The position numbers and the translations under genes are program-made. Shown here piece by piece: positions 5,613-56,342 of a stretch of 64,000 nucleotides of DNA. Under the pieces are notes generated by a model. That model made no database searches and was not told the origin of the DNA. It was given only the letters and a program-made list of their open reading frames with translations. The DNA is from an uncultured Verrucomicrobiota bacterium (lineage in GTDB: Bacteria; Verrucomicrobiota; Kiritimatiellia; SS1-B-03-39; UBA6053): positions 10,554 through 74,553 of the forward strand of contig CAKZLZ010000156.1 in the NCBI GenBank assembly GCA_937127435.1, given 5' to 3'. Within the stretch, counting starts at the first letter, position 1. Each line of letters opens with the position of its first letter.

Positions 5613-5641
5613 TTGACATGGTCATTTAAAATGACTATATT
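5613..5641 (+). promoter_or_regulatory. Sigma70-type promoter of the TA operon with palindromic operator in the spacer
   Basis: TTGACA (5613-5618), 17 bp, TATATT (5636-5641); spacer holds near-perfect palindrome GTCATTTAAAATGAC (5621-5635). Confidence 0.75.
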
Positions 5642-5647
5642 GAAATT

Positions 5648-6270: not shown

Positions 6271-6292
6271 AGATCCCGAGTTCCGGATGTTA

Positions 6293-7411: not shown

Positions 7412-7485
7412 AGGGGAGTCAACGTTAACTTAGCTCGCGGATAAAATATCTACCAAATCAATGAAAAGAGATTTAGACTGGTGAC

Positions 7486-8595: not shown

Positions 8596-8683
8596 AACTT
8601 TTCCCCTTCTTCTTGTCCTTCGAATCTATCCCTCCTTCGGGAGGGAACGGATGAGACTTGTAATTCAACTCAGATAAATCTTT

Positions 8684-10339: not shown

Positions 10340-10344
10340 TTCCC

Positions 10345-11043
10345 ATGCATGGTTCTCAAACCCATTCCAATAAGGCCCGCCAATCCGACGCTTTCACGCT
10401 GATTGAAATGCTGGTGGTGATTGCGATTATTGCCCTGTTGGCATCACTGATTATCCCTGCGGTCACGGGAACCCTCGCAAGGGCCAAAAAAACCTCCGCC
10501 ATGAGTAATCTGCGGCAACTTGGAATCGGCGTCGTGGCCTATGCAACAGATAATAATGGCAGGTTTCCCCGGGGCGGTTTTCAGCCCTTATACTGGCATA
10601 ATGACATTTATCCTTATGTAGGAAATGATCCCTCCGTGTTCCGGGATCCGGCGGGTCATACAGAATATGGTGACCCCTGGGTACAATTTGAAGAGGATGG
10701 TGAAGATCTTCCTTTTGACTTTGGATACAATGCCCATATCAATCCTTATTCAGGCTCCGAACTGGTAAATGAAAAACCCTGGAACCAGGGCCCAAGAGAT
10801 CTCTCGGATATTATGGGGTATCCGGTGCCTCTCATTCACACCATCGTAAACCAAAACAACTTTGTTTTCTGGACCTTCTCACTGCCTGAGAACTCCGGGA
10901 ACCGGCAGGCCTACGACCCGCGCCATTCGGGCAGAGGACTCGTGCTCTGGACCGACAGCAGTATCTCCTCGCCCACCTATGCGGAATACATGCAGATGGC
11001 CGAAGACCGGGGTGGGCCTTCAGCTTTTGTCACGGGCCAATAA
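10345..11043 (+). CDS. Prepilin-type N-terminal cleavage/methylation domain protein (pseudopilin-like)
   Basis: AFTLIEMLVVIAIIALLASLIIPAV...ARAKKTSAMSNLRQLG; C-terminal RH.G...LW.D motif of the PVC-expanded class. Confidence 0.88.
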   Translation: MHGSQTHSNKARQSDAFTLIEMLVVIAIIALLASLIIPAVTGTLARAKKTSAMSNLRQLGIGVVAYATDNNGRFPRGGFQPLYWHNDIYPYVGNDPSVFRDPAGHTEYGDPWVQFEEDGEDLPFDFGYNAHINPYSGSELVNEKPWNQGPRDLSDIMGYPVPLIHTIVNQNNFVFWTFSLPENSGNRQAYDPRHSGRGLVLWTDSSISSPTYAEYMQMAEDRGGPSAFVTGQ

Positions 11044-11047
11044 TAAA

Positions 11048-12733: not shown

Positions 12734-12749
12734 TTTTTTCACCCCCGCT

Positions 12750-14411
12750 ATGAAGAACAGTATGCTTGAACAGACGACCTTGGCCCCGACGCCGGAATCC
12801 TCAGCGCTTTTGACGTTGAAACCTGAAAACGGCAAAACGCTCCTCCTTCCCAAAGGTGTGCACCATTTATTTCCGGGGGACTTTCCTTTCCGCCACCTGC
12901 ACATTTCCAACAATGATGACGGGATTAAACATATTGTGTTTGATCTTTCCGGCATGGAAAATGTCACCATCGACGGAAACGGTGCCGAACTGATCCTGCA
13001 TGGTCATCTGATTCCTTTCTATATGCGGGATGCGAAGAACATCACCTTGAAGAATCTCACCATCGATTGGGAGCATCCCTTTTGTGCCCAGGGGGAAGTG
13101 GTGGACGCGGGTCCGGGTTGGGTGGAGATAAAACTCGAAGAAGCATATGACCTCCGGGTTTGCGATGGACGTCTACAGGCGCACACGCCTGATTGGATGT
13201 ATCCAGTGGGTATTCATAATCTGAATTATATCGACCCGGTCCGCGGGGAGCACGCATATCAGTCCACCGACGAATATGGGATGTTCACCCATGAGGACTA
13301 TACCGCGATTCAAAAGGAGGCGCGGGTCCTCCGGCTGGAGTCGGATGTGATGCGGAACAAACCCCAAGTCGGTCAGGTCGCGGTCTTCCATTTTGACGGC
13401 CGGACTTCTCCGGTGGTTTCGGCACAAAACTGCGAAGGCATCCGCATCGAAAACAGCACAATTTTTCATGCGGGGGCGATTGCAACCATCTTCGAAGGAT
13501 GCCGCGATGTTTATTTAGATCATCTTGAAGTCAGGCGCCGGGGGAAGCGATGGTTTTCTTCGTTGAATGACGCAACCCACTTTGTGGAGTGCAAAGGGAA
13601 TATATTCCTGACTAACTGTCTTTTTGAATTTCAAAATGATGATGCCACCAATATCCACGGGATCTACAGGTCTGTCGATGCCGCATTGAACGAAGATACC
13701 CTGCTTCTCCGCCTCATGCATTTTCAACAGTTGGGGGTTGATACCATTGGCCCCGGAGACAGCCTGGCCCTCTGCGATTGCAATTCTTTGAAGACCCTGG
13801 CCATCCGCAGGGTGTCCAAAGTTTTGCCTCAGGATCACCAGTGCACGGCCTATCAGTTTTCGGAAAAGCTTCCGGATCTGGACTGGAACCATGTAGTGGT
13901 CATGCGTTATGAAAGCGACGTGCACGTGCTGATTCAGGGCAATACCATCCGCAACAACCGTGCGCGGGGCATTCTGATCACCAGCATGGGGAAAGTGGAA
14001 ATCAGGGACAACTTTTTTCATACGCCGGGACCTGCCATTCAGATTGAATACGGGGTTACCGGAAAGTGGTTTGAATCCGGTCCGGTTGAAGATGTGGAGA
14101 TCACGGACAATATCTTTGATCAGTGTAACTTCGGGTGTTGGGGGAATGCTTTGTTTTTGCTTGGCCCCATGCATGGCGACCCCACATCGGAAAACATCCG
14201 GATTCATGGAAACCGCATTCATCACATCTACAAACCGCTGGTCCGCATCTCCAATGTGGATGGCTTTGTGTTTTCCGACAATGAGATCGTGCCCGGTACC
14301 GATTATCCGCATTGGGAAAGTTCTCCCGACATGCTGGTCCTTGGCCCCGGGGTCACAAACGAGGTCCTTTCGGATTTTACGTCAAACCGCGAAGCCGGTG
14401 ACACAGTTTGA
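12750..14411 (+). CDS. GH110-family alpha-1,3-galactosidase-like beta-helix protein
   Basis: HISNNDDG.KHIVFDL....NVTIDGNGAELILHG, IDWEHPFCAQGEV, NDATHF, QNDDATNIHG, NNRARGILI, GKWFESGPVEDV; start at ATG 12750. Confidence 0.82.
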   Translation: MKNSMLEQTTLAPTPESSALLTLKPENGKTLLLPKGVHHLFPGDFPFRHLHISNNDDGIKHIVFDLSGMENVTIDGNGAELILHGHLIPFYMRDAKNITLKNLTIDWEHPFCAQGEVVDAGPGWVEIKLEEAYDLRVCDGRLQAHTPDWMYPVGIHNLNYIDPVRGEHAYQSTDEYGMFTHEDYTAIQKEARVLRLESDVMRNKPQVGQVAVFHFDGRTSPVVSAQNCEGIRIENSTIFHAGAIATIFEGCRDVYLDHLEVRRRGKRWFSSLNDATHFVECKGNIFLTNCLFEFQNDDATNIHGIYRSVDAALNEDTLLLRLMHFQQLGVDTIGPGDSLALCDCNSLKTLAIRRVSKVLPQDHQCTAYQFSEKLPDLDWNHVVVMRYESDVHVLIQGNTIRNNRARGILITSMGKVEIRDNFFHTPGPAIQIEYGVTGKWFESGPVEDVEITDNIFDQCNFGCWGNALFLLGPMHGDPTSENIRIHGNRIHHIYKPLVRISNVDGFVFSDNEIVPGTDYPHWESSPDMLVLGPGVTNEVLSDFTSNREAGDTV

Positions 14412-14487
14412 TGCCGAACTCAAAAGGCTCGGTACAGACATGATTTCCACCATGTGGGAAGAAGAGGGGGATCGGACTGGCCGGTCC
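14374..14487 (+). pseudogene. Displaced internal fragment of a peptide deformylase gene
   Basis: 14407-14487 matches def 15349-15428 at 75/80 plus a 1-nt insertion; upstream codons read ILRQTAKPVTQFD vs resident VLREKAAPITNFD. Confidence 0.9.
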
Positions 14488-14526
14488 CAATCATTGTGGA
14501 TGTGGATGCGATCAGTTTGATGTGAA
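14483..14526 (+). pseudogene. Displaced copy of the priA 3' end, including the stop codon
   Basis: 42/44 identical to 5546-5589; encodes IIVDVDAISLM-stop. Confidence 0.93.
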
Positions 14527-15282: not shown

Positions 15283-15825
15283 ATGATTTATCCTCTTTGT
15301 TATTTTGGAAATTCGGTGCTTCGCGAAAAAGCTGCGCCGATTACGAATTTTGATGCCGAACTCGAAAAGCTCGGTAAAGACATGATTTCCACTATGCGGG
15401 AAGAAGAGGGGATCGGACTGGCCGGTCCGCAAATTGGGAAGTCCCTGCGAATTTTTACCATGGAAGTTCCGGTGGATATGGACGAAGATGAAAACGGCCA
15501 ACCGCTTAATGCGGGATTGGAAAGTCCGCTGGTGGTGGTGAATCCGGAAATTGAAGTTGTGGGGGACGTCGAGGAGGAAATGGAGGAGGGGTGTCTCTCT
15601 ATTCCCGAAGTTCGCGGAAAAGTGATTCGTCCTTTTGCCATCAAATTGAGGTATCAGAATGTGAAAGGCGAAAGCAAGGAACTCGAACTTCAGGGCTTGG
15701 CCGCCCGCTGTGTGCAGCATGAAACGGATCATTTGAACGGGGTGTTGTTTATCGACTATTTAAGTTCAGTCAAAAAAATGTCCATCAAAGGCAAGCTTAA
15801 GAGAATTAAGCAAAATTATGGTTAA
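15283..15825 (+). CDS. def: Peptide deformylase
   Basis: GIGLAGPQIG, EGCLSIP, QHETDHLNGVLFID motifs. Confidence 0.97.
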   Translation: MIYPLCYFGNSVLREKAAPITNFDAELEKLGKDMISTMREEEGIGLAGPQIGKSLRIFTMEVPVDMDEDENGQPLNAGLESPLVVVNPEIEVVGDVEEEMEEGCLSIPEVRGKVIRPFAIKLRYQNVKGESKELELQGLAARCVQHETDHLNGVLFIDYLSSVKKMSIKGKLKRIKQNYG

Positions 15826-15830
15826 GTGCC

Positions 15831-15956
15831 ATTTAGGGGAGATGATTTAGGGCAGGATGATTTAGGGCAGGATAATTTAGGGCAGGATAATTTAAGGCAG
15901 GATGATTTAGGGCAGGATGATTTAGGGGAGCATAATTTAGGGCAGGATAATTTTTG
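15831..15956. repeat. 15-bp tandem repeat, 8 units plus a degenerate ninth
   Basis: Unit ATTTAGGGCAGGAT(G/A) starting at 15831, 15845, 15860, 15875, 15890, 15905, 15920, 15935; two related inverted units at 16019-16045. Confidence 0.9.
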
Positions 15957-16116
15957 AGGGGAGTCAAAGAAGAATGTTTCCCTGGCCGTGGCTCGCGCCA
16001 CACGCGGGTAGGCAGATCAATCATCTTGCCCAAAATCATCTTGCCTCATGTTGTGGAATATCATTTTGCCTCTTAGAAAGCTTGCTATTCAAATGTAGTC
16101 CTTTCATACTTTTTTT

Positions 16117-17718
16117 ATGATTGGGCAAGAGGATTTTTTCAGTGACGGGTCAGACGAAGGCAACAACTTAAGTTTGGCGAGGATCCATTCTGCCGCGGTA
16201 CTGGGGGTGGATGCGATTCCGGTGGAGGTGGAGGTCAATGTCAGCCCCACCCAGGAAAACAAATTTCAACCCAACATCGTGGGACTGCCGGATGCGGCAG
16301 TAAAAGAAAGTCTGGACCGGGTAAGCACCGCCCTGGCCAACAGCGGATTGGAAACGCCTTTTGCGATGAGATGGCTCATCAACCTCGCGCCTGCGGATCT
16401 CCGCAAGCAGGGGCCCAGTTTTGATTTACCGATTGCTTTGGCGACCTTGTCCGCATTGGAAGAGCTGACGCAGGAGCAACTCAAGGGAGCGATGGCGGTG
16501 GGGGAGTTGGCACTGTCCGGCAATTTACGTCCGGTGCGCGGGGTGTTGCCTATTGCGCTGCGGGCAAAGGAGATGGGAATTCAAAGGCTGTTTGTGCCTG
16601 AGGAAAACGGCGAAGAGGCGGCGGTGGTGGAGGGGTTAAAGGTGTATCCGGTGAAACATCTGCGGGAGGTTGTGGATTTCCTGAAAGGGGATTTAGAACT
16701 GCAAGCGCTGTCGCTGGATCTGGACAAGATGTTCGATCAGTATCAACAATACCCACTCGATTTTGCGGAAGTGAAAGGACAGGAAACTGCGCGGCGGGCT
16801 TTGGAGGTTTCGGTTGCGGGAGGTCATAATTTGTTGATGATCGGCTCTCCGGGCACGGGTAAAAGCATGATCGCTAAACGCATTCCCACCATACTGCCTC
16901 CGCTCAATTTGGCGGAATCATTGGAGGCAACCAAAATACATTCGATTGCCGGGACCCTGCCCGCACATCAGGCCCTGGTGGCACAACGGGCCTTTCGTGC
17001 GCCTCATCACACCGTTTCCGACGCGGGACTTTTAGGCGGAGGAACCTATCCCATGCCCGGAGAAGTAAGTCTGGCCCATCACGGGGTATTGTTTCTCGAT
17101 GAACTTCCTGAATTTGCCCGCAACGTATTGGAAGTGATGCGTCAACCTTTAGAGGACGGGGTGGTCAATATCAGTCGGGCGGCGGCCTCGGTTACCTTTC
17201 CCTGCAGTTGCATGCTCGTCGCAGCAATGAACCCGTGTCCCTGCGGTTATTATGGTGATCCCAAACGTAAATGCCATTGCACCCCCCAGCAGATTCAGCG
17301 CTACCGCAACCGGGTGAGTGGACCGTTGTTGGACCGTATTGACATTCAGATTGATGTACCGGCAGTCCGTTACGAAGAATTGACTTCACTCGAAAAAGGA
17401 GAAAGCTCCGCCGCCATTCGGGAGCGGGTCATCCGCGCCAGAAAAGTGCAGGAAGAACGCTTTGCCGACAATGACCGCATTCACTGCAACGCCAATATGG
17501 GCACCAAAGAACTGAATGAAGTTTGCCGCCTGGATGAGCAGGGGCATCAAATGTTGCGCATGGCCATGGACGAGTTAAACCTTTCCGCCCGCGCCTATGA
17601 CCGCATCCTCAAAGTCTCCAGAACCCTCGCCGACCTGGAGGGTGCAGAAGACATTCAACCCCACCATCTCGCCGAGGCCATCCAGTACCGGAGTTTAGAT
17701 CGGCAGGGGTGGACGTAA
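16117..17718 (+). CDS. comM: YifB/ComM-family Mg-chelatase-like AAA+ ATPase
   Basis: [93 protein letters not shown]. Confidence 0.93.
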
Positions 17719-17870
17719 CGCAGCCTTTCAGGCTGAAGGGCAGGGGCTTTCCAGCCTTTTCTTCTCTTAGCGGTAAATAATGGGGAAAAAATGCGTCTAA
17801 GAGCCTTTTAAGCTCTAAAAATCTTCCTAAGTTTTTGGCCGACAACCGAAACCTGTGGCCAGCCCCCGCT
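17541..17870 (+). repeat. comM 3' end plus about 150 bp downstream; left copy of a diverged direct repeat
   Basis: Aligns to 19525-19821, which has small deletions including one that removes the stop region. Confidence 0.92.
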
Positions 17871-17873: not shown

Positions 17874-19388
17874 CTAAAGTTCGAATTCGACATCCTCATC
17901 TTCTGGTGGGGTGGCCCCGCCGGGTTGCAGATTGGGTTGGGTAATGTTTTCGGCCTGGGTGGTGGGCAGATAGCGGTAGGTCACCATCAGGGCCAATGCG
18001 CTGAGGCTTGTGTCCAACACCAGTCCCTGTTCAGGGGACTCTCTGGAAAAATTATTCCAGTGACCATCGTCCGCCTGATTTTTCACCAGCGCTTCTACCA
18101 TCTTCGGGTAGAATTTTCTGAAATTCGACCCGTTCCGGTTTTCCTGAAAAAAGGCCTGCACGGCGTAATACCAAAACATCAGTTCTCCCCCGTACTCATC
18201 ACTTCCGATCCTGCTGACACCCCATTCCGGCAGCCAGTCCTGTTTGGTGTGACGTTCCATGTATTTTAGAATTTCACGTGCCTCTTTCCGGTCACCGTTT
18301 CCGGTAAGGTACATGCCCAACAGGCCGGCGGCGGACAGAATTTCTCTTCGGGAGGAAGCCTTGGGTGAGGTTTCAATCGAAAGGCGGTAGCCGAAACCCC
18401 GTCCCAAATCATCTTTCATCGATCCCAGCAGCATCCCCTCCATGGCCCGTTGCTTATACACATTCAGTTTCGGATGATCCGGGAGGGCGATGCTTGCCGC
18501 TTTCAAAGCTTGAACATGCCAGGCATCCACCGAAACGTCATGGGTGTCCGATTTTTCATATTTATATTCATAACCGCCTCTGGGATGCTGAGATTCAATC
18601 ATCACCTTAACTGCCCGTTCCAAGGGAGCGGTCAACAGGGGGTTTTGCGTCATAGTGGAAGATTCGGCAAGGGCATAGGTGGCCATGGCATGGGCATAAA
18701 CCACATGTCGGCCCACCGGCTGAAGCAATCCGCGGGAATCCTGATTTTCAACCAGAAACCTGATGCCATTGGCAACGGTTGAACCGAATTCCCGTGATGC
18801 GGGAGTTTCTCCGTGTGCCAAAAATGCCAGCAATGCGAGGCCTGTGTGTCCCGAATCACCTTTTTTTCCCTCTGCTCCCCACGATCCGTTCTCATGCTGA
18901 TTCTCTTTCAACCATCTGAGGGCTTTGAGTACTGCAGGTTCTGAAACGCCGCCCAGTCCCCGTCCGTATTGTTTTAGCGCCTTTGCGCGTCCGACGGAGG
19001 TTCGACCGGCCAATAAATTTGTCATATGTACCGGACTGGATATATCCGACATCAGGTCCGAGAGGCTGCTGACATCGGTTTGCACAGATTCTACAACCGG
19101 TTCCGGATCTTGTTCCATGTCCGTATCGATGGGTGTATCAAAGGCGAGGTCGCTGAAATTATCTATATCATCAGGATCGACGACCATCTCGGGTTCGATT
19201 TCCTCTTCGATTTCATCAATAAGTTCTTTGTCCATGGCTTCGATGACAATTACCGTAGTGTTATCCCGTTCCTGCTTGTCCTGAAAAGTAATGAAGGTGA
19301 TCAGGAGCATGATCAAAATGCCATTGATGATCAGGGAAACCAAAACACTCGAGGTGTGGGCCATTCGAAGGTATCGTTGTACGTTCAT
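17874..19388 (-). CDS. Prenyltransferase/squalene-oxidase-repeat (alpha/alpha-toroid) protein, membrane anchored
   Basis: 504 aa; N-terminal TM, acidic linker, ALRWLKENQHENGSW, TGLALLAFLAHG, GIRFLVENQ, NQADDGHW repeats. Confidence 0.8.
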   Translation of the reverse strand: MNVQRYLRMAHTSSVLVSLIINGILIMLLITFITFQDKQERDNTTVIVIEAMDKELIDEIEEEIEPEMVVDPDDIDNFSDLAFDTPIDTDMEQDPEPVVESVQTDVSSLSDLMSDISSPVHMTNLLAGRTSVGRAKALKQYGRGLGGVSEPAVLKALRWLKENQHENGSWGAEGKKGDSGHTGLALLAFLAHGETPASREFGSTVANGIRFLVENQDSRGLLQPVGRHVVYAHAMATYALAESSTMTQNPLLTAPLERAVKVMIESQHPRGGYEYKYEKSDTHDVSVDAWHVQALKAASIALPDHPKLNVYKQRAMEGMLLGSMKDDLGRGFGYRLSIETSPKASSRREILSAAGLLGMYLTGNGDRKEAREILKYMERHTKQDWLPEWGVSRIGSDEYGGELMFWYYAVQAFFQENRNGSNFRKFYPKMVEALVKNQADDGHWNNFSRESPEQGLVLDTSLSALALMVTYRYLPTTQAENITQPNLQPGGATPPEDEDVEFEL

Positions 19389-19524: not shown

Positions 19525-19821
19525 GGGGCATCAAATGCTCAGCATGGATGAATTCAACCTCTCCGCCCGCACCTACGACCAGATCCTCAAAGTTTCCCGT
19601 ACCACCGCCGACCTGGATGGGCCAGAAGATATTCAACCAAACCATCTCGCCGAAGTTGTCCCATACCGCAGCCTTTCAGGCTGAAGGGGAGGGGCTTTCC
19701 AGCCTTTTTCTTATCTTAGCGATAAATAATGGGGTGAAAAAATGCGTCTAAGAACCTTTTAAGCTCTGAAAATCCTCCTAAGTTGTTGTCCGACAACCGA
19801 AAGCTGTGGCCAGCCTCCGCT
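19525..19821 (+). pseudogene. Displaced, diverged copy of the comM 3' end and downstream region
   Basis: Reads MDEFNLSARTYDQILKVSRTTADLDGPEDIQPNHLAEVVPYR vs resident [42 protein letters not shown]. Confidence 0.92.
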
Positions 19822-32269: not shown

Positions 32270-32434
32270 GGGGCTTGGTTTACAGAGGGACTGCATTTTT
32301 GCAAGGATAGGTAAAAGGAGAATGGGAGTCCAAATTTGTATCCCGAGACTCAGAATACACAGGGAAAGTGCGCGGTTCTCCTTTCTTGCTTTCGCTTTAC
32401 AAGTTTCCTGTTCTCATGCAGGTTAGCCGTCCAA

Positions 32435-34195
32435 ATGACACACACCACTTTTTCAACAAAACTGCGCCCGATTCGGGACTATCTTCGCCTGCGCTTGTTG
32501 CTGGGGACGGTATTGTTGACCTTGGTGGCCTCGGTTTTGGCCTTGTGGTTGCCGCGTCTGCTGGGGGATTTGGTGGATGGTTTAGTGGACGGCTCTTTTT
32601 CAAAAAGTGCACTGTTAAAGCAGGTGGGTATTTATATGGGGGTTGCGCTGATAGGAGCCTTGTTCAGCAAATGGATGCGGCAGTTGCCCATGCGCTGGGG
32701 ACCGCGGGTGGGGCATCAGTTACGCATCCGGTTACACCGTCATTTATTGCAGTTGGATGAAAACCAGATTCATGACCGGCGGGTGGGGGAATTGATGAGC
32801 CGGTTGCAGTCCGATGTGAATTCAGTGGCGGATATGTTGTCGATGGGCGGACAGAGCTTGGTGAGGGCGGTTTTCACTTTGGGAATCGGATTTACCATTA
32901 TGTTCCGCCGCTCACCTTCTTTGGCTTTGATGGTGAGTTTATTGTTGCCACTCCTGATGTTTATCGGCTTTCTGCTTATTCATTCGATTCGCTTCCGCCA
33001 TTTGAAAGTGCAGGAACAGTTGGGTCTTATCTCCAGTTTTTGCCAGGAATCTTTTGGTGGTTTAAGGATTTTGAGAGGTTTGGGATTAGGAAAGATCCGG
33101 ACCGAACGTTTTAAGATTTTAAATCAGGAGTTTATCCAACGGAATTTATCTTTAAGCCGGATTGAGGTTTTTGCGATGCCACTGATCCATGCGGGCTTCG
33201 TATTGGGGAATGTTTTGTTGTTGTGGATGGGAGGGGTACAGGTGATCCGGGGCCAAATTCAAATCGGTATGTTGGTTGAGTTTCAACAATACCTGATGAT
33301 CATGCAGTGGCCGGCCCTGTCGATTGCCTGGACCCTGAGTTTGATTTTGCGGGGGCGGGCGAGCCAGGGGCGTTTGCAGGAAATACTGGATGCGGTTCCC
33401 CAGGTTACTGAAAGCAAGACCCGGGTGACCTCAGCACCGGAGAGCTTACAAAGTATCCGTTATGAAGACGTGAGTTTGACCCTGAATGAAACCCGGGTGC
33501 TGAAAAATATTTCCTTTGAAGTGCAACCCGGACAACGATTGGGAATTACCGGTCCGACCGGATCCGGCAAAACCGTTTTAATGCAGCTGCTTTTGCGGAG
33601 ACAGGATCCGGATGTAGGACGGATTCTTTTGGGCGGATATGATTTACGGGATCTGTCCTTGGACTTGCTTTATAATCAAATTCGAATCGCGCCCCAGGAA
33701 CCGATCTTATTTTCGATGTCGCTGGAAGAAAATATAAAACTGGCGGAAGGGGACGTGTCGGATGAGAATTTAGAACGTGCACTGTATGTGTCAGCACTGG
33801 ACCGTGATCTTCCCCAGCTTGCCGAGGGATTAAAAACCCGCATCGGAGAACGCGGGGTTACCCTTTCCGGTGGACAGCGTCAACGTTGTGCCATTGCCCG
33901 GGCGTTGCTTTCGAAGCCCGAAGTGCTTTTGCTGGATGATTCCCTCTCCGCAGTTGACACTTCCACCGAGAGTTTGATTTTGGAACGGCTTTTGTCTTCG
34001 TTGGACCGGCAAACCCTCTGTCTGATTAGTCACCGCTATGCCGCATTGCGTCATTGTGATCAGGTCCTGGTCTTACGTGACGGAGAAATTATTGAGCGCG
34101 GAGCTCCGGATGATTTGCTGGAAGCCGGCGGGGCTTTTGCCGACTTGGCGGAGCGGCAACGTTTACAGGCCGCATTGGAGGTGGGGGATGAGTAA
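32435..34195 (+). CDS. ABC exporter, TMD-NBD half (MdlA-like)
   Basis: GPTGSGKT, LSGGQRQR, LLLDD, ISHR; start at ATG 32435. Confidence 0.92.
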   Translation: MTHTTFSTKLRPIRDYLRLRLLLGTVLLTLVASVLALWLPRLLGDLVDGLVDGSFSKSALLKQVGIYMGVALIGALFSKWMRQLPMRWGPRVGHQLRIRLHRHLLQLDENQIHDRRVGELMSRLQSDVNSVADMLSMGGQSLVRAVFTLGIGFTIMFRRSPSLALMVSLLLPLLMFIGFLLIHSIRFRHLKVQEQLGLISSFCQESFGGLRILRGLGLGKIRTERFKILNQEFIQRNLSLSRIEVFAMPLIHAGFVLGNVLLLWMGGVQVIRGQIQIGMLVEFQQYLMIMQWPALSIAWTLSLILRGRASQGRLQEILDAVPQVTESKTRVTSAPESLQSIRYEDVSLTLNETRVLKNISFEVQPGQRLGITGPTGSGKTVLMQLLLRRQDPDVGRILLGGYDLRDLSLDLLYNQIRIAPQEPILFSMSLEENIKLAEGDVSDENLERALYVSALDRDLPQLAEGLKTRIGERGVTLSGGQRQRCAIARALLSKPEVLLLDDSLSAVDTSTESLILERLLSSLDRQTLCLISHRYAALRHCDQVLVLRDGEIIERGAPDDLLEAGGAFADLAERQRLQAALEVGDE

Positions 34196-36032
34196 AAAAT
34201 CTACCCGGAGCGGGGGCGCCTCCGCCCCCACATCAAATGAAATCAGCGGGAACAGAGGGGGGCGGGGGCGCCCCCGCTCCGACCGTCACTACCTGAAGCG
34301 TATGCTTCATTTTGCCAAACCCTATCGCTTGGGTTTGGTTGTGGGCTTGATTCTGCTTTTGTTGCAGGTCATCAGCACCAACGTGATGCCCCTGTTAATC
34401 AAAAAGGCGATAGATGGCTATTTATCCCCGGGGGCGGCGGAACTTCCTGAAGCGGATCGGATCGCCGGACTCAAACAGTTGGCCATCTGGATGGGTGCGA
34501 TGGCGGGAGGCATGTTTGTTTTTCGAATTTCCCACGCGTACTTGATGACCTGGGTGGGACAGCATGTGCTTCGGGATTTACGCATGGAGGTTTTCCGCAA
34601 AGTGTTGTCATTGCCCATGCGGCGAATTGATCAGTTGCGGATTGGACGATTGATGACCCGGGCGACAAGTGACTTGGATGCGCTGCAGGATTTGATCCGT
34701 AACGGGTTTATAGGTTTGTTGGCCAATATGCTGTTGTTGGTGGGGGCGATGATTTTCATCTGGTTAATCGAATGGCGTTTGGCGCTGGCATTTTATTTGG
34801 TTATTCCGGTGCTGGTGGGATTGTTGACTTTCATCAATCGGCGAAGCCGAAAAGCGCAACGCGAAGCGCGGTCGGCGGTTTCCATGCTGAACAGCAGCAC
34901 CCAGGAAAGTTTAAGCGGGTTGTTTACCTTGCGGGTGTTTAATCAACGGGACCGGATGCGGGAACGTTTGGTGACGCAAAGTGATGAATTCCGTGCGGCC
35001 CGCACGCGGGTGGTTGATTGGAACACCTGGCACTTTCCCATTTTGGAAATCACCCGTGCATTTGCGGTTGGCATTTTGGTTTTGGCTTGCGGATGGTGGG
35101 CACCCGCACAGACCGGAAGTCTGGTCGCCTTTCTGTATTTTATTCGTTACTTCTTCCGGCCACTGGAGGAATTGGCTGAGCAGTCTCAACAGCTGCAAAG
35201 TGGACTGGCATCGGCAGAACGGGTGTTTGCATTGTTAGACGAAGAGGAAATCCCCCCCGATCCCGAACAGCCCCAGCGCTTGGATCACGTGGAAGGGCAA
35301 ATTGAATTTAAAGACGTGAACTTCGCGTATGAGGAGGCACATCCTGTTTTGAGGAATCTTAGTCTCAAAATTCAGCCCGGACAATTTGTGGCCGTGGTAG
35401 GTGCCACCGGGGCGGGCAAATCCACATTGCTCAGTTTACTGAACCGGTTTTATGATGTGGAGTCGGGAGAGATATTATTGGACGGTTTTAATATTCAATC
35501 TTTCACTTTAAGTGATCTGAGAAAACACTTGGGAATGGTGCAGCAGGATCCCATGCTGTTCTCCGGAACGGTGGCGGACAACATCGGCCTGGGCCGGGAA
35601 GGGGCCGATCAAGAGGCCATTGAAGCCGCCGCCTGCCGGGTGAATGCCCACCGGTTCATTGAAAAAATGGAGAAGGGGTATCAGACGGATTTGGGCGAAG
35701 GCGGGTACCGTCTTTCCACCGGACAAAAACAACTCATCGCGCTGGCACGGATTTTGTTGCAGGATCCTGAGGTGATCCTGATGTTGGATGAGGCCACCGC
35801 CTCAGTGGATTCCGAAACCGAACTCCTGATTCAGGAAGGGTTGGAGGCGGTGCGGAATGGGCGGACCTGTATTGCCATCGCCCATCGCCTGTCCACCATT
35901 CAGCATGCTGATTTAATTCTGGTGATGCGCCACGGCAAATTGGTGGAGCAGGGTACCCATCAACAGCTGTTGTTGTCGGACGGATATTACCGGAGCCTGG
36001 TGGAAGCCATGCGGATTGGGTTGAAGGTGTAG
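34188..36032 (+). CDS. ABC exporter, TMD-NBD half (MdlB-like), partner of the upstream gene
   Basis: GATGAGKS, LSTGQKQ, MLDEATA, IAHRLST; start at ATG 34188 overlapping the previous stop. Confidence 0.92.
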   Translation: MSKKSTRSGGASAPTSNEISGNRGGRGRPRSDRHYLKRMLHFAKPYRLGLVVGLILLLLQVISTNVMPLLIKKAIDGYLSPGAAELPEADRIAGLKQLAIWMGAMAGGMFVFRISHAYLMTWVGQHVLRDLRMEVFRKVLSLPMRRIDQLRIGRLMTRATSDLDALQDLIRNGFIGLLANMLLLVGAMIFIWLIEWRLALAFYLVIPVLVGLLTFINRRSRKAQREARSAVSMLNSSTQESLSGLFTLRVFNQRDRMRERLVTQSDEFRAARTRVVDWNTWHFPILEITRAFAVGILVLACGWWAPAQTGSLVAFLYFIRYFFRPLEELAEQSQQLQSGLASAERVFALLDEEEIPPDPEQPQRLDHVEGQIEFKDVNFAYEEAHPVLRNLSLKIQPGQFVAVVGATGAGKSTLLSLLNRFYDVESGEILLDGFNIQSFTLSDLRKHLGMVQQDPMLFSGTVADNIGLGREGADQEAIEAAACRVNAHRFIEKMEKGYQTDLGEGGYRLSTGQKQLIALARILLQDPEVILMLDEATASVDSETELLIQEGLEAVRNGRTCIAIAHRLSTIQHADLILVMRHGKLVEQGTHQQLLLSDGYYRSLVEAMRIGLKV

Positions 36033-36062
36033 ACCTATGGGTAAAGACCATATTGGGGCGGT

Positions 36063-36091
36063 TTGACATAAATCAGATCATTTGATATATA
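36063..36091 (+). promoter_or_regulatory. Sigma70-type promoter of the second TA operon
   Basis: TTGACA (36063-36068), 17 bp, TATATA (36086-36091); imperfect ATCA...TGAT palindrome in the spacer. Confidence 0.65.
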
Positions 36092-36098
36092 TTTATGC

Positions 36099-36341
36099 AT
36101 GAGAACGACCATAGATATGCCTGATAGCTTAATGCAAAGAGTTAAAGCTGTGAGTGTTTCCCGAAAAACCAGTTTTAGAGCGTTGGTAATTGAAGCATTG
36201 GAAAAGAGTTTGGCGCAAAGCGAAAGCTCTTTTGAATTACCTGATGCATCTGCCGGAAAAGCGAAAAAGAAACCGCAGGTGACGGCTTCGCAGGTGAATG
36301 CGGAAATTGATCAGCTCCGGGAAGGGGCTTTTCGAGGATGA
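36099..36341 (+). CDS. VapB-type antitoxin (ribbon-helix-helix)
   Basis: MRTTIDMPDSLMQRVK...SFRALVIEALEKSL; 4-bp overlap with the PIN gene. Confidence 0.85.
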   Translation: MRTTIDMPDSLMQRVKAVSVSRKTSFRALVIEALEKSLAQSESSFELPDASAGKAKKKPQVTASQVNAEIDQLREGAFRG

Positions 36342-36772
36342 ACTGTCTGGATACCAATTTACTGGTCCATGCCCATCAACGCGAATCCGCATTGCATGAA
36401 CCCGCAAAACGTTTTGTTAAAAAAGTGGCTGAAACGTCAACACCATGGACCATTTGTTATCACAGCCTTATTGAATTTTATGGGATTGTAACCAAAAAAT
36501 CTTTTTGGGAAATCGCGACAACTCCGAAACAAGCATTTGATCAAATCCATGCTTGGAAAGCTTCCCCGAGTTTAACCATATTAAACGATTCGGGGACCAC
36601 CTTTGAGATACTGGAAAAAATTGTTCTCAAAGGAAAAGTTTCAGGACCTATGGTGCATGATGCACGTATTGCGGCCTGTTGTTTATCCTATGGTGTCAGC
36701 TGTCTTTATACTGTAGACCGGGATTTCAGTCGCTTTCCCCAACTGAAAACTTTGAACCCGCTTGTTGGCTAA
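36338..36772 (+). CDS. VapC-family PIN toxin
   Basis: CLDTNLLVHAH, VHDARIAACC, TVDRDFSRFPQLKTLNPL. Confidence 0.9.
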   Translation: MNCLDTNLLVHAHQRESALHEPAKRFVKKVAETSTPWTICYHSLIEFYGIVTKKSFWEIATTPKQAFDQIHAWKASPSLTILNDSGTTFEILEKIVLKGKVSGPMVHDARIAACCLSYGVSCLYTVDRDFSRFPQLKTLNPLVG

Positions 36773-36830
36773 AGTGAAATATTTCCCTTTTGACTGGCGG
36801 GTTCAGTTGTTTTGGCATTGGATTCATTTG

Positions 36831-37211
36831 ATGAAAATAGAACATCTTGCGTTTAATGTCGAAGACCCGATTGCGGTGGCGGCCTGGTATGGAGAACAGT
36901 TTGATTTAAAAATCGTCAAACATCTGCCCGAGCCCAACCAAACACATTTTCTGTCGGATGGTCAGGGGACGATTATTGAAATTTATAACAATCCACCGGA
37001 TGAAGTTCCTGCGTATGCGTCGATGAATCCTTTAATTTTTCATTTGGCATTTGTCTCCGTGGATCCGTTGGCAGATGCAGAACGTTTGAAAGCCGCTGGC
37101 GCGATAGGGGTGACGGAAGTTCTTCCGGGGGATGGATCCCATTTGATTATGATGCGTGATCCCTGGGGCTTGTCGATTCAACTTTGCAAACGTGCCAAGG
37201 CAATGCTTTAG
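36831..37211 (+). CDS. VOC (glyoxalase/bleomycin-resistance) family protein
   Basis: MKIEHLAFNV, IIEIY, FHLAFVS, MRDPWGLSIQL; start at ATG 36831. Confidence 0.88.
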   Translation: MKIEHLAFNVEDPIAVAAWYGEQFDLKIVKHLPEPNQTHFLSDGQGTIIEIYNNPPDEVPAYASMNPLIFHLAFVSVDPLADAERLKAAGAIGVTEVLPGDGSHLIMMRDPWGLSIQLCKRAKAML

Positions 37212-37220
37212 TTGTTTGGT

Positions 37221-37259
37221 TTTAACGGTCACAATGTGACCCTGCATGAGTTTGCCCAT
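37221..37259 (+). pseudogene. Displaced internal fragment of the downstream MtfA-like peptidase gene (covers the HEFAH codons)
   Basis: 38/39 identical to 39839-39877. Confidence 0.93.
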
Positions 37260-37309
37260 TCACAACTGTGGCACTGGAGGGTTATTACCGGAGCTTGGTG
37301 GAAGCGATT
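37255..37309 (+). pseudogene. Displaced, diverged copy of the ABC exporter 3' end
   Basis: 37283-37305 is 22/23 identical to 35985-36007; reads HSQL-ALEGYYRSLVEAI (1-nt deletion) vs resident HQQLLLSDGYYRSLVEAM. Confidence 0.85.
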
Positions 37310-37468
37310 GCGATGTGTATTGTTGTGATTGTGGGTAAGGATGGGTGCGGTTTGCGATTCAGAGAGAGCCGTGCCTTCAGCACTCATCCGGTGAGTTTTG
37401 TTTGTTCCCGGCCCTTGCGGACCGGGCTGCAGAGAGGCGTCCGTACCGGACTCGGAGAGTGGGATGGT
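37304..37468 (+). repeat. Left copy of a ~165-bp direct repeat (last codons of the DUF5685 gene plus downstream DNA)
   Basis: Aligns to 38647-38813 with about 7 substitutions and one 2-nt indel. Confidence 0.93.
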
Positions 37469-37619
37469 CTTGCAAAGTACAAATTTCTGGTAAGGCTAAA
37501 GTTCTTCTAAACTGTTTTATATATTCTGCCGGGACAAGCCCAACGCTTGGGGAAAATGGGGAAAGTCCTCTCTCATTTTATCTTGGCACATTTTATATGC
37601 TCAGACATAGATCATCATC

Positions 37620-38681
37620 ATGTTTGGTTTTCTCAGTGCCCCATGTTCCGGCTGTAGTGGTCAGAATCATTCCATCTACCAGTCCCATTTCTGTGGATTG
37701 TGTAACCGCTTGCGTCAGGACTACGGCTTGCCCATGCGGTTTTTAGTGAACCGTGATGCCACTTTTCTGTCGTTGTTGGGGAATGCGTTAGGCGAGAGGC
37801 CTGCGGTTCCGGTACGCGCCACTTGTTGTAACCCTTTGGGAAAACCACGTCAGTTGGTGCAGGAGGGGGATGCTGTTTCTTATGCGGCGGCGGTAACCAT
37901 GTGCGGGCTGAGAGCAAAATTGGACGACGAAGTAACGGACCGTCGCTTTCGTCCTGCGCGTTTCGCATTCCGAGGGGTGCGTGGTATTCTGTCCCGACCT
38001 ATCTCGCGGGCGGAGATGTTCTTAAATCAGCATGGGTTTCCGGTGGATGCGGTAAGAGGAAATTTGAGTGAGCAGTCGTCGGTTGAGCAACAGGCCGTGT
38101 CGCGTCGGGATCCGGATTTGGATGCCTTGAGTTTTCCTTCTGCGTTTGCTTTCGGGAAAATTGTCGCTCATAGCAGTGAGCAGGCACGGGATGCTTTGGA
38201 ATTGATGGGCAATAGTCTGGGACGTTTAATTTATACGCTGGATGCATTTGTTGACCGCAAGCGGGATCAGAAAACCGGTCAGTTTAATCCTTTTTTATTA
38301 CAGCCGGGTTTGGTGAATATCCTTCCGGATTTCATGGAGCGGGATTTGTCGGCAATTTCTGTTCATCTGGGACGTTTACCCCTGAAGTGTCATCGGGAGA
38401 TTTTGGATCAAATTCTGGGCCGGAATTTACAACGGACCTGTATATCAATTTTAGACGGAAAAGCGCCTGCTCACCAGCGCAATGAAAGGCGGAAAAAACG
38501 GAATAAGTCACAGAATAATAATGGATGTGTTTGTTGCGACGGGTGGTATGCCTGTGACTGTTGTGATGTGATCTATTGTTGTGATTGCCCTGATTCAAAC
38601 AGCGGATGTGATGGTTGCTCCGCTTGTGATTGTGGCGATGTGTGTTGCGATTGCGATGTGTGTTGTTGTGATTGCGGGTAA
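37620..38681 (+). CDS. DUF5685-like protein with Cys/Asp-rich tail
   Basis: YQSHFCGLCNRLRQDYG...RFLVNRD..FL, GRLIYTLDAFVD...D.KTGQFNP; 20 Cys in the last ~51 aa. Confidence 0.75.
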   Translation: MFGFLSAPCSGCSGQNHSIYQSHFCGLCNRLRQDYGLPMRFLVNRDATFLSLLGNALGERPAVPVRATCCNPLGKPRQLVQEGDAVSYAAAVTMCGLRAKLDDEVTDRRFRPARFAFRGVRGILSRPISRAEMFLNQHGFPVDAVRGNLSEQSSVEQQAVSRRDPDLDALSFPSAFAFGKIVAHSSEQARDALELMGNSLGRLIYTLDAFVDRKRDQKTGQFNPFLLQPGLVNILPDFMERDLSAISVHLGRLPLKCHREILDQILGRNLQRTCISILDGKAPAHQRNERRKKRNKSQNNNGCVCCDGWYACDCCDVIYCCDCPDSNSGCDGCSACDCGDVCCDCDVCCCDCG

Positions 38682-38813
38682 GGATGGGTGTGGTTTGCGA
38701 TGCAGGGAGAGAGCCGTGCCTCCAGCACTCATCCGGTGAGTTTTGTTTGTTCCCGGCCCTTGCGGACTGGGCTACAGAGAGGCGTCCGTACCGGACTCGG
38801 AGAGTGGGATGGT
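38647..38813 (+). repeat. Right copy of the ~165-bp direct repeat; an internally deleted third copy lies at ~39000-39060
   Basis: Matches 37304-37468; 39000-39060 joins the GATGG.TGCGGTTTGCGA part to the CAGA.AGGCGTCCGTA.CGGA.TCGGAG..TGGGATGGT part. Confidence 0.9.
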
Positions 38814-39206
38814 TTTTAACCAGGTGATTTCGGGTGGAGCTGCGGCTCACCTGTTTGTGAAAACTTAGAATATGAATCCCGAAGGGATGGCTCTCCACAG
38901 GCCAGTCCGTCAGGGCTGGTAATGTTGACAGAGGAGGATGGGGAGTGCTGTAAGTACGGCTCTCATACTTGCAGGTCTCAATGGGATAGGGGAGTTGAAG
39001 ATGGTTGCGGTTTGCGAAGCACAGAAAGGCGTCCGTAGCGGAATCGGAGGATGGGATGGTTTTAGGGAGTCCCCCCCTTGCGGACGGGATACATATATGC
39101 GTTAAATTGCGTTGCGAATATGCGTGCGTTGATCCTCTGATAAAGATACTTTTTTACTTTAAACTGACTCGTTTTGTCAGATGAGATGACTTCACCCGGA
39201 GCAACT

Positions 39207-39359
39207 ATGAAAATTGAAACCCTTGCATTGAACGTATCAGATCCGGTGATGGCAGGGGCTGAAGTTTTTCCCGGTGAAATCTCGCATCTACTATGGTTGC
39301 ATGATCCCCGGGGAGTGGCGCTTCAACTTTATAAATCTTTCAGTCCCTTGGGAAAATGA
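39207..39359 (+). pseudogene. Internally deleted, diverged remnant of a VOC gene
   Basis: MKIETLALNVSDP...AEVFPGEISHLLWLHDPRGVALQLYK matches the first ~13 and last ~30 residues of the 36831-37211 protein. Confidence 0.82.
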
Positions 39360-40162
39360 CGGTTTTCATTTGTATGCTTCTTATAGGAAGTGCCGGGTAT
39401 GGCTGGTACTTTATCAAACGCAAAAAACGTCGAGAGACTTTGTTGGCATCGCCTTTTCCGGAAACGTGGGATCAAATTTTATTGAAAGGCTGGCCGGTGT
39501 ATACGACCTTACCCGACGAAGTAAAAAAACGCTTGCAGGGCTATACCCGGGTTTTTGTGGAAGAGAAAAATTTTGAGGGCTGCGGTGGATTGGAGATGAC
39601 GGAAGAAATCAAAGTGACGGTGGCCGCGCAAGCCTGCCTGTTGTTGGCGGGGCGGGAGATGAAGAAGGTCTATTCCAACCTGAAATCAGTTTTGGTTTAT
39701 CCGCATACGTTTGTAGCAGGCGGGAAAGGAATTTTTGGCGGAAAATATGATGAACCCTCCGCCCGACTGGGGGAATCCTGGCAAACCGGAACCGTGATTC
39801 TCTCCTGGCATTCGGTACAGGGCGGGGCGCAAAATATTTTTGACGGTCACAATGTGACCCTGCATGAGTTTGCCCATCAACTGGATCAGGAGGACGGGGT
39901 TGGCGACGGCGCTCCGAACCTGCACGGCAAGACCGCCCGTACCTGGGCCGGATGTTTTCAGCATGAGTTTAAGGACTTTCTGGCGCAAATAGAGAAAGGG
40001 AAACGAACCGTCATCGATGACTACGGCGCCACCAACGGGGCGGAGTTTTTTGCCACTGCAACCGAGGCTTTTTTTGAAAAACCCAAACAGCTCCAGGAAA
40101 AAAGACCGGAGCTGTATCATGAACTGAAAACGTATTATCAGATGGACCCGAACGGGTGGTAA
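39356..40162 (+). CDS. MtfA/M90-family zinc-dependent peptidase
   Basis: IAAQAC-like VAAQACLLL, GESWQTG.VILSW, HNVTLHEFAHQLD, IDDYGATN.AEFFA.ATEAFFE. Confidence 0.88.
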   Translation: MTVFICMLLIGSAGYGWYFIKRKKRRETLLASPFPETWDQILLKGWPVYTTLPDEVKKRLQGYTRVFVEEKNFEGCGGLEMTEEIKVTVAAQACLLLAGREMKKVYSNLKSVLVYPHTFVAGGKGIFGGKYDEPSARLGESWQTGTVILSWHSVQGGAQNIFDGHNVTLHEFAHQLDQEDGVGDGAPNLHGKTARTWAGCFQHEFKDFLAQIEKGKRTVIDDYGATNGAEFFATATEAFFEKPKQLQEKRPELYHELKTYYQMDPNGW

Positions 40163-55809: not shown

Positions 55810-55851
55810 AAGGTTTCGTTCATTCCGCTACAGCATTCGTTTTGCAAAAAC

Positions 55852-55926
55852 GTCGTTCCACGGCCCCCGTGGTAAACGAATGCTTCGGCTTTGGATTCGG
55901 TTTTACCACGAGGGCCGTGGAACGAC
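55852..55926. repeat. REP doublet of the same family as 2708-2760
   Basis: GTCGTTCCACGGCCCCCGTGGTAAA ... TTTACCACGAGGGCCGTGGAACGAC (24/25 inverted). Confidence 0.8.
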
Positions 55927-55940: not shown

Positions 55941-56342
55941 CTATCGATGTTTGATCCATTCGCAATCATACAACTCAAATTGGCGGTCGGAGGAAAACAG
56001 GGGAATGCTTTTTGAAATGGAGAGTGAAAGAATCATCCTGTCAACCGGATCCTTATGGTGCATGGGTAAGCTTTCGGCATGGCAGGCATTTTGAGCGTCT
56101 AAGCTGTACCAGGTTAATTGGAAATGGGTCATAACCTCTGTTAAAAATTCAGAGAGGGTCTCCGTTTCACAGGGAAGTGACAGTTTTCCGATTCTTAATT
56201 TTCGGGCGATTTCCCATGCCGATAAGCTGTGTACAACCGGGTGGGTGGCATTTTCCAGTTCTTGGATGGCAGATTGGTTTTGCCATCTTCCGGCCACAAG
56301 GTCCACTAAAGCACAAGTATCCAGAACATGCGTAACTCTCAT
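55941..56342 (-). CDS. PIN-domain (VapC-like) toxin
   Basis: VLDTCALV, SLSAWEI, HHKDPVDRMI, SSDRQF. Confidence 0.88.
   Translation of the reverse strand: MRVTHVLDTCALVDLVAGRWQNQSAIQELENATHPVVHSLSAWEIARKLRIGKLSLPCETETLSEFLTEVMTHFQLTWYSLDAQNACHAESLPMHHKDPVDRMILSLSISKSIPLFSSDRQFELYDCEWIKHR

Follow-up and report, generated by a model that had tools for sequence, protein, structure and literature searches.

A mosaic of neighboring gene fragments beside a toxin-antitoxin islet in an uncultured marine Kiritimatiellota bacterium, probably a stack of illegitimate-recombination joints

RESULTS

Gene content and repeats of the locus

The window, that is, the whole stretch of DNA analyzed here, comprises 64,000 nucleotides (nt) from an uncultured marine Kiritimatiellota bacterium. 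Pfam searches identified two ABC exporter genes (32336 to 34195 and 34038 to 36032), a DUF5685 gene (37620 to 38681), and a Peptidase_M90 gene, mtfA (39356 to 40162), and all genes from the ABC exporters through mtfA lie on the plus strand. Directly after the second ABC gene comes a low-GC islet (36033 to 37211, plus strand; Pfam and GC scan) that carries a putative antitoxin gene with weak ParD/VapB matches (36099 to 36341), a PIN toxin gene (36338 to 36772; Pfam PIN, 5e-12), and a VOC/glyoxalase gene (36762 to 37211; Pfam Glyoxalase, 5e-10) whose likely start is Met-24 at 36831. The GC content of the islet (0.438) is the minimum of all 1,179-nt windows in the 64 kb (mean, 0.509; standard deviation, 0.027), which is consistent with acquired DNA. 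The VOC gene is separated from the DUF5685 gene by a 408-nt spacer, and it is in this spacer that the mosaic patch described below is found.

The neighborhood of DUF5685 and mtfA also contains three copies of a repeat unit, all on the plus strand. Unit R1 (38682 to 38816, by self-search) follows DUF5685; R0 (37339 to 37471, about 134 nt) is a copy of R1 that lies within the patch and has a two-hairpin motif; and R2 (39000 to 39063, by self-search) is internally deleted. All three copies end at GGGATGGT(T/C)TT, and the motif CCYTKRCGGACNGG occurs four times in the window, at this locus only. Sequencing run X2 has a 318-nt deletion between the repeat-unit hairpins, and in run X3 the third repeat unit is full-length; the locus is structurally unstable in the population. 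Just upstream of mtfA is a 50-amino-acid remnant of a second VOC gene (39207 to 39359, plus strand), recognized by BLASTP against the intact VOC protein (50% identity; E = 2e-7). Its residues 1 to 17 resemble residues 24 to 40 of the intact protein and its residues 18 to 43 resemble residues 118 to 143, such that the N-terminal 17 amino acids are fused to the C-terminal 26 and about 77 internal codons have been lost, a loss that would fit the decay of one member of a redundant pair. The stop codon of the remnant overlaps the mtfA start (ATGA).

The closest relatives of the DUF5685 protein are from Kiritimatiellota, at no more than 67% identity, and no synteny with the window was shared at the loci of DUF5685 homologues. 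A scan of genome contigs with DUF5685 gave no match, and the same scan with mtfA gave a single one, Kiritimatiellaeota bacterium B1221, whose scaffold stops about 240 nt upstream of mtfA within unrelated tandem repeats; the priA genes of B1221 and the window are 94% identical. Two scans of metagenome contigs did not find a close relative, and none of the relatives L010 to L021 has the mosaics.

The patch is assembled from fragments of three neighboring genes

The original prediction described positions 37221 to 37468 as a three-way mosaic of an mtfA fragment, an ABC exporter end, and a DUF5685 end, and a blastn self-search of the window combined with pairwise alignments confirmed this composition. 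The first segment had been given as 37221 to 37259 with 38 of 39 identities; the match stood, and its extent was revised to 37220 to 37259 on the plus strand, where 39 of 40 positions match 39838 to 39877 (E = 7e-15), inside the mtfA gene (by self-search, alignment, and Pfam). This segment is in frame with native mtfA, and its translation, F(N/D)GHNVTLHEFAH, contains the HExxH zinc motif (HEFAH).

The second segment (37255 to 37308, plus strand) aligns to the 3' end of the resident second ABC gene (35956 to 36010, plus strand; self-search and alignments) and is clearly the weakest of the three matches. When 37255 to 37305 is aligned to 35956 to 36007, 41 positions agree, 10 disagree, and one gap of 1 nt is needed. 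The core (37276 to 37308) matches the ABC end at 29 of 33 positions, and the stretch at 37260 to 37275 matches at only 9 of 16 and may have a source other than ABC. The segment carries a 1-nt deletion and ends 22 to 25 nt before the position of the ABC stop codon. It reads THSQLWH..EGYYRSLVEA, compared with THQQLLLSDGYYRSLVEA in the resident protein, and when one frameshift is allowed it plausibly still resembles the ABC C terminus.

The third segment is the longest: 37304 to 37468 corresponds to 38647 to 38813 with 94.6% identity over 167 columns, and the match can be extended to 37471 and 38816 (94%). Its parent (38647 to 38816, plus strand, by self-search) consists of the DUF5685 3' end and the 135 nt that follow it (unit R1), and 37304 to 37471 and 38647 to 38816 thus form 170-nt direct repeats on either side of DUF5685. 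Within the segment, 37304 to 37338 (plus strand) matches the last 35 nt of DUF5685 coding sequence, stop codon included (38647 to 38681), and is followed by R0. The encoded tail is CDCDVCCCDCG*, with one codon changed to Y in the patch copy. Because this Cys/Asp tail is native to the DUF5685 family, in which homologues end in ...CDCDVCCCDC(S/G), segment 3 derives from the DUF5685 gene end.

Between the VOC stop codon and the mtfA segment lie 8 nt (37212 to 37219, plus strand). Positions 37213 to 37223 (TGTTTGGTTTT) are identical at 11 of 11 positions to the first DUF5685 bases (37621 to 37631) and may represent a fourth fragment, although the match alone is not significant (E = 6 window-wide; rough within-locus P of about 0.02 to 0.05). 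For the three main segments, the concern that the matches might be no better than chance was addressed with 100 dinucleotide-preserving shuffles of the window. No segment's real score was reached: the real scores were 71.9, 34.2 to 38.2, and 244 bits for segments 1, 2, and 3, and the shuffle maxima were 28 to 30 bits (28 for segment 2).

The patch is present in independent assemblies and in a sister strain

Misassembly had been named as a possible refutation of the mosaic. The window was assembled from short metagenomic reads, and this part of it is repetitive. However, a metagenome contig in ENA that was assembled independently and has other end points matches the window at 100% over 13.2 kb; two independent assemblies agree base for base. 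In addition, Logan contigs from seawater metagenomes represent sister strains at about 91 to 99% identity, and one of these, a 214-nt contig from run X6 (a different study and year), covers 37122 to 37335 and thereby both junctions. The contig begins in the end of the VOC gene, runs through the mtfA and ABC pieces, and reaches into the first part of the DUF5685 piece; ...GCTTTAGTTGTTTGG and TCACAACTGTGGCACTGGAGGGATATTACC flank its mtfA piece. It differs from the window at seven positions without gaps (97% identity). The pieces are, moreover, diverged copies of their parents and not exact k-mer repeats. The patch is real DNA and no assembly artefact; we regard the chance that it is an assembly chimera or a product of strain mixing as negligible.

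Three of the seven differences fall inside the patch (37224 A>G, 37254 G>A, and 37282 T>A, window to X6), and at all three X6 has an mtfA or ABC parent state. The G at 37224 is the mtfA parent state, the A at 37254 differs from the mtfA parent and is ABC-like, and the A at 37282 is likewise ABC-like. These parent states indicate that the patch is older than the split of the strains and is drifting in the window's strain. They also bear on a claim that the ABC piece had acquired three synonymous changes, which stood only in part: GGA>GGT (37282) proved to be recent and private to the window's strain.

A further strain comparison concerns the 170-nt repeats. At 37398 and its counterpart 38743, both window copies have T, and G is found in R0 of one sister strain (X5) and R1 of another (X2). 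This pattern hints at gene conversion between the repeats, which would make segment 3 look younger than it is.

Repeated gene ends flank accessory DNA elsewhere in the window

A second mosaic lies at 14394 to 14526 (plus strand), where a def fragment and a priA 3' end are joined at GGC[C/A]GGTCC. The def fragment (14394 to 14487) resembles def at 15336 to 15428 (88%), with differences distributed 4:2:4 over the codon positions, no clear third-position bias, and conservative replacements; the priA-end fragment (14479 to 14526) matches 5542 to 5589 (94%). Read along the strand, the sequence passes from 14393 to def 15336 to 15428, to priA 5542 to 5589, and on to 14527. The two 48-nt priA-end repeats bracket an 8.9-kb island (5590 to 14478) that encodes a Phd/PIN pair, LacI, a sulfatase, and beta-helix proteins, and the mosaic sits at its right edge, with the def fragment on the inner side. 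The idea that the two PIN toxin-antitoxin (TA) modules form one mobile family was rejected, as the modules have no relationship to each other (BLASTP E = 0.08).

Contigs from X1, X2, and X5 lack both the island and the def-priA joint: the priA coding sequence runs directly into 14527 onward, and the X1 contig reaches def with the spacing of the window. The island is therefore a strain-variable insertion, and the priA-end fragment and the sequence to its right belong together as one uninterrupted native block. The distance between priA and def is 9.7 kb in the window, 100 nt in the closest complete relative (B12222), 50 nt in UBA6053, and 2.6 to 2.9 kb in two other relatives; the mosaic is absent from all four. 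The 52-nt priA end of X5 agrees fully with the resident copy, which is not true of the fragment, and priA of X1 is 95% identical to that of the window throughout, with no breakpoint visible.

A third displaced 3' end was recognized by alignment and translation at 19525 to 19821 (plus strand), a decayed comM C-terminal fragment with downstream DNA. It repeats 17541 to 17870, the last 175 nt or so of comM and about 150 nt beyond, at 77% over 333 columns, and the two copies flank an extra minus-strand gene (17874 to 19388).

The two ABC-end copies (35956 to 36010 and 37255 to 37308) are likewise direct repeats that bracket the TA-VOC islet, with the patch at its right edge. Sister strain X1 also has the islet, with ABC, TA module, and VOC gene contiguous, and its resident ABC 3' end is stable, with only two synonymous differences. 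Because no strain without the islet or with an intermediate form was found among the sister-strain contigs, the insertion history of the islet rests on its GC content and the def-priA analogy. In our reading, the ABC piece is an ABC end of greater age, either displaced or duplicated, to which younger joints would have been added later; it may be the original gene end pushed aside by the islet and not a copy of the resident end.

These arrangements also raise the question of whether the repeated gene ends are the attL and attR sites of integrase-less, CIME-like islets at the 3' ends of ABC, priA, and comM. Direct repeats of a gene 3' end bracket accessory DNA three times, TA modules lie at the left end of two islets, and one island is strain variable. 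However, no integrase or recombinase was found in or near any of the islets, and the repeats are 48 to 330 nt long, only 77 to 94% identical, and unrelated between islets. A mobile element would also not be expected to carry a right-arm fragment of the current downstream gene (def or mtfA). We consider site-specific integration of this kind very improbable.

All joints are direct, and the segments probably differ in age

Followed from left to right, the patch leads from 37219 to mtfA 39838 to 39877, to ABC 35956 to 36010, to DUF5685 38647 to 38816, and back to 37472. Two of its joints are forward jumps, of the deletion type, and two are backward jumps, of the type made by a tandem duplication or by the join of an excised circle. 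The original prediction that this locus repeats the def-priA architecture with further events layered on top was borne out, both by the shared topology and by the unequal divergence of the segments: each mosaic sits between its own donors and begins with a piece of the downstream gene, to which the upstream gene's 3' end is attached. Counted over both mosaics, all seven joints are direct, and each is of either the deletion or the duplication type. Three joints connect the end of a unit to its start (mtfA 39877 to ABC 35956, R1 end 38816 to 37472, and def 15428 to priA 5551).

Short microhomologies lie at three of the junctions. The parents of the mtfA/ABC joint had been predicted to share sequence, and the 9-nt CCCATCAAC is indeed common to both. 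A 6-nt overlap at GCGATT had been proposed for the ABC/DUF5685 joint; this did not hold, as the ABC gene reads GC followed by CATGCGGATT and only the 2 nt GC are exactly shared. The def/priA joint has five exact nucleotides (GGTCC) and matches at eight of nine over GGCNGGTCC. No second copy of any duplicated unit is present in the window; every gene is single copy, and only remnants of 40 to 170 nt remain at the joins. Because two full copies are absent, any duplication can only be a collapsed one.

The segments have diverged from their parents to different degrees: the ABC piece at 11 of 52 columns, the mtfA piece at 1 of 40, and the DUF5685 piece at 8 of 166. The ABC piece is thus about 5 to 8 times more diverged than the others (Fisher P = 0.0005; P = 0.012 against mtfA alone), which argues that the patch is not a single event that copied present-day genes. 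This distinction matters for the main rival explanation, one-step serial template switching (FoSTeS/MMBIR-like) or the templated synthesis of filler DNA where two ends were joined. There, a polymerase at a stalled fork or broken end would have copied 40 nt of mtfA, about 50 nt of ABC, and 170 nt of the DUF5685 end, all within ±2.6 kb, before the end was finally rejoined upstream of DUF5685. The pieces are indeed short, local, and from several donors, both scorable joints show microhomology, and four switches would account for the four joints without lost intermediates; template switching and MMBIR are also an established source of complex rearrangements (PMC2583991; bioRxiv 10.64898/2026.05.22.727201). 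A single event, however, predicts segments of equal age, and the divergence of the ABC piece speaks against this, although part of the contrast may stem from gene conversion between the 170-nt repeats. Template switching also often yields inverted pieces, whereas seven of seven joints here are direct, and the native block next to def-priA in island-less strains fits insertion or duplication but not filler synthesis. Given the unequal ages and the all-direct orientation, we disfavor the one-step explanation and consider it unlikely.

Tests for function and for dedicated enzymes

The patch could in principle have acquired a function, either as a chimeric protein of 38 amino acids (TTG start at 37212) or 80 amino acids (37268 to 37510) or as RNA, in the form of a regulatory 5' leader of DUF5685 or a small RNA built from the duplicated 3'-untranslated-region repeat unit. 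The mtfA piece is in frame right after the VOC stop codon and retains HExxH. Against a protein, all three differences between X6 and the window within the patch are nonsynonymous in the 38-amino-acid frame, and a 2-nt insertion in run X5, whose sequence covers 37308 to 37525, breaks the 80-amino-acid open reading frame (ORF). We see no coding constraint on the patch.

For an RNA, the hairpin motif of R0 shows some compensatory changes and a weak similarity to Acido-Lenti-1 RNA (RF01687), and coverage in run X3, a putative RNA data set, is deeper over the repeat-unit regions than over genes. The X3 contigs over the repeat, however, belong to other loci with unlike flanks. The RF01687 scores of the repeat-unit hairpin (26.8 bits at 38875 to 38920 on the minus strand and 24.3 bits at 38752 to 38797 on the plus strand) are below the gathering threshold of 37 bits and amount to resemblance only, and no Rfam family reached threshold. 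Predicted folding of the patch and of its parent was no better than that of shuffled sequences (z-scores, -0.4 and -1.0), and no promoter or terminator signals exceeded those of shuffles. Collectively, these data make a functional protein or RNA improbable, and the patch is most likely without function. For annotation, 37212 to 37471 and 14394 to 14526 are better labeled as pseudogene fragments than as genes or RNAs.

Among the approximately 50 ORFs of the window, Pfam searches found no integrase, transposase, recombinase, or reverse transcriptase. The last of these bears on an RNA-mediated origin, in which a reverse transcriptase would have copied the 3' end of DUF5685 mRNA and switched to the ABC and then the mtfA mRNA, with the chimeric cDNA being integrated. 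Every piece reads in the same sense as the transcribed plus-strand genes, and segment 3 ends where all three repeat-unit copies end (GGGATGGTTTT), a possible RNA 3' end. A search for a terminator at the repeat-unit end (38816) did not find one, though, and the unequal segment ages and the def-priA mosaic, which is explained by insertion at the DNA level, also speak against this route; we hold it to be scarcely credible.

DISCUSSION

In this study, we describe a patch of about 250 bp that consists of fragments of three nearby genes. Our preferred explanation, to which we assign a probability of roughly 0.65, is that the patch has no function and consists of stacked joints from illegitimate recombination, at the right-hand end of a TA-VOC islet gained by horizontal transfer. 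The fragments, their order and orientation, the microhomologies, the occurrence in two strains, and the lack of coding constraint are observed, and from these we infer the donor and an order of events. In the first step, DNA containing an ABC 3' end, the TA module, and the VOC gene would have entered beside the ABC gene. Entry could have involved a pair of crossovers, one homologous and the other guided by microhomology, as in homology-facilitated illegitimate recombination (HFIR), or a circularized segment that integrated through a single crossover. This would have produced the two ABC 3'-end direct repeats around the islet, with 37255 to 37308 as the displaced, decayed copy. In the second, the mtfA-to-ABC joint at CCCATCAAC would have arisen as the join of a tandem duplication or excised circle that extended from the ABC end to about codon 174 of mtfA, most of which would later have been deleted to leave 40 nt of mtfA. 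With only 0 to 1 differences in 40 positions from resident mtfA, this piece fits a duplication within the lineage better than a foreign donor. In the third, the DUF5685 end, R0, and the region upstream of DUF5685 would be the join of a tandem duplication of a 1.35-kb DUF5685 unit, whose first copy was presumably trimmed by a deletion that fused its end to the ABC fragment through the 2-nt microhomology. The underlying process would be RecA-independent, microhomology-guided recombination, with redundant copies removed by later deletions.

This scheme requires at least three to four separate events within 250 bp.

A broader reading is that the lineage may recurrently, and in a semi-regular manner, take up accessory cassettes next to the 3' ends of conserved genes with no integrase involved. 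The cassettes, many of them headed by a PIN TA module, would be circularized, or copied by copy choice between the next gene downstream and the upstream gene's end, before a single crossover integrates them and leaves the signature of a downstream fragment followed by an upstream 3' end, of which there would be three to four in 64 kb. If true, the scars would be a record of the ends of donor fragments in natural gene transfer in an uncultured marine clade. We consider this generalization doubtful and offer it very tentatively.

Illegitimate-recombination scars are rarely kept in bacterial genomes, as deletion quickly removes them. Here, two to four scars survive in a 64-kb stretch from an uncultured marine PVC bacterium. 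Each of them marks an edge of accessory DNA, and one was caught as a presence/absence polymorphism between sister strains. They offer a natural view, at the level of sequence, of the way in which small islets (TA pairs, a VOC enzyme, and a polysaccharide-utilization block) enter beside conserved genes without integrases, and they also display the later trimming of redundant copies.

Several known systems resemble the patch in part. A nearby repeat of a gene 3' end is a feature shared with diversity-generating retroelements. We rejected this reading, as the mismatches here are mixed (A/G, T/C, C/T, T/G, and others) and not adenine specific, the repeat runs past the stop codon, and no reverse transcriptase was found. 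FoSTeS/MMBIR and templated insertions (PMC2583991) likewise string together several short nearby segments with microhomology; here, in contrast, the segments are unequally diverged and none is inverted, which points to separate events. The joins of tandem duplications (PMC3411829; the "Tandem" tool preprint, 10.64898/2026.05.22.727201) share a direct end-to-start joint and microhomology of 5 to 25 bp (CCCATCAAC and GGCNGGTCC here), and duplication junctions in Salmonella have 7 to 27 bp of microhomology (PMC3411829). In our case, only remnants are left at the join point and the two full copies that define such a duplication are gone.

The displacement of gene 3' ends leaves orphan gene ends in Rhs, CDI, and type VI secretion system (T6SS) effector-immunity loci (PMC5361080; for C-terminal displacement, Jackson et al. 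2009, as cited there). As at those loci, an incoming module brings its own gene end, the old 3' end is pushed downstream, and strings of orphans result. The genes involved here, however, are ordinary ones (ABC exporter, priA, and comM), the displaced ends are tiny (48 to 330 nt) and come without an immunity gene, and there is no sign of diversifying selection.

A further parallel is with HFIR (de Vries and Wackernagel 2002, Prudhomme et al. 2002, and Meier and Wackernagel 2003, as cited in PMC5361080). Both HFIR and single-crossover integration leave a portion of the homologous locus in two copies, and in Escherichia coli the single-crossover products had 109 to 950 bp duplicated (PMC3240628). 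In HFIR, foreign DNA comes to lie beside a conserved anchor gene, with its other end at a short GC-rich microhomology, and in the window the ABC, priA, and comM ends are duplicated around accessory DNA. The present case differs in that it is known from sequence alone, in that the illegitimate joint was made with internal sequence of the next conserved downstream gene, and in that the patch has extra duplication and deletion joints stacked on top. The patch is thus most likely a further instance of a known process, of modest interest for the recurrence of its scars and for the one that is polymorphic between sister strains.

Repeats around the DUF5685 gene

The surroundings of the DUF5685 gene (37620-38681) contain two kinds of repeat. 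The first is a two-hairpin motif consisting of CCYTKRCGGACNGG and a short second hairpin. It occurs four times in the window (37412-37425, 38757-38770, and 39075-39088 on the plus strand and 38902-38915 on the minus strand), is confined to this region, and shows a few compensatory changes among the four copies. Its likeness to the Rfam family Acido-Lenti-1 is below threshold, with matches of 26.8 bits at 38875-38920 (minus strand) and 24.3 bits at 38752-38797 (plus strand), against a gathering score of 37. The minus-strand hairpin copy, 48 nt long, has many unrelated flanks across metagenome contigs from sister strains, which makes it a dispersed repeat of this group of bacteria. The second is a unit of ~134 nt that begins and ends with GATGG and is present in three copies (37339-37471, 38682-38816, and 39000-39063), all of which share the terminus GGGATGGT(T/C)TT. 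The third copy has an internal deletion in the window, whereas it is full length in run X3, one of the sequencing runs holding sister strains. In another such run, X2, 318 nt are deleted between hairpin copies (38757-39074).

A further element of ~43 nt (37529-37571) lies 50 to 90 nt upstream of the DUF5685 start and occurs once in the window. It matches several unrelated contigs of runs X1 to X3, with unlike flanks, and may represent a promoter or another regulatory motif that is dispersed.

The region upstream of mtfA

An open reading frame of 50 amino acids (39207-39359), whose stop overlaps the start of mtfA, is a VOC paralogue with an internal deletion that joins the N-terminal 17 amino acids to the C-terminal 26; it is 50% identical to the intact VOC gene (36762-37211). 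In the closest cultured relative, Kiritimatiellaeota bacterium B1221, gene order is conserved from mtfA through a 658-aa gene to a 688-aa gene. Scaffold_77 (L005 1-160) ends within tandem repeats of ~60 nt, the break lying ~240 nt before mtfA; thus, the upstream region is repeat rich in B1221 as well.

Separately, a GC-rich, near-perfect hairpin (34206-34281; 24-nt arms, 96% complementary) lies just past the stop of the first ABC gene (34195), within the longest open reading frame of the second (34038-36032). Its matches to miRNA families in Rfam are spurious and caused by the GC-rich hairpin.

Other probable displaced gene ends and repeats

The def|priA mosaic (14394-14526) marks one edge of an 8.9-kb island (5590-14478), which was inserted between the ancestrally adjacent priA and def and is absent from sister strains X1, X2, and X5. 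The island encodes Phd/PIN, LacI, a PEP-CTERM protein, a sulfatase, and two beta-helix proteins, and the stop codon of gene 12693-14411 falls within the def-derived fragment of the mosaic. Directly 3' of def is a tandem array (15817-15966) of about 9 to 10 copies of the 15-nt unit TTTAGGGCAGGATRA.

The 3' end of comM and the DNA downstream of it (17541-17870) recur at 19525-19821 with 77% identity, the coding part being decayed but still recognizable. The copies flank a gene on the minus strand (17874-19388) that has a weak squalene-hopene-cyclase-like domain. This repeat is a third displaced gene end in the window.

Finally, a palindromic unit of ~30 nt, GTCGTTCCACGGCCCCCGTGGTAAACGA, is found at 2706-2735, 55850-55879, and 55902-55926, and also at 2649-2678. 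Its copies lie 53 kb apart and include an inverted pair adjoining a third PIN gene (55941-56342, minus strand), and the unit looks like a REP-type repeat.
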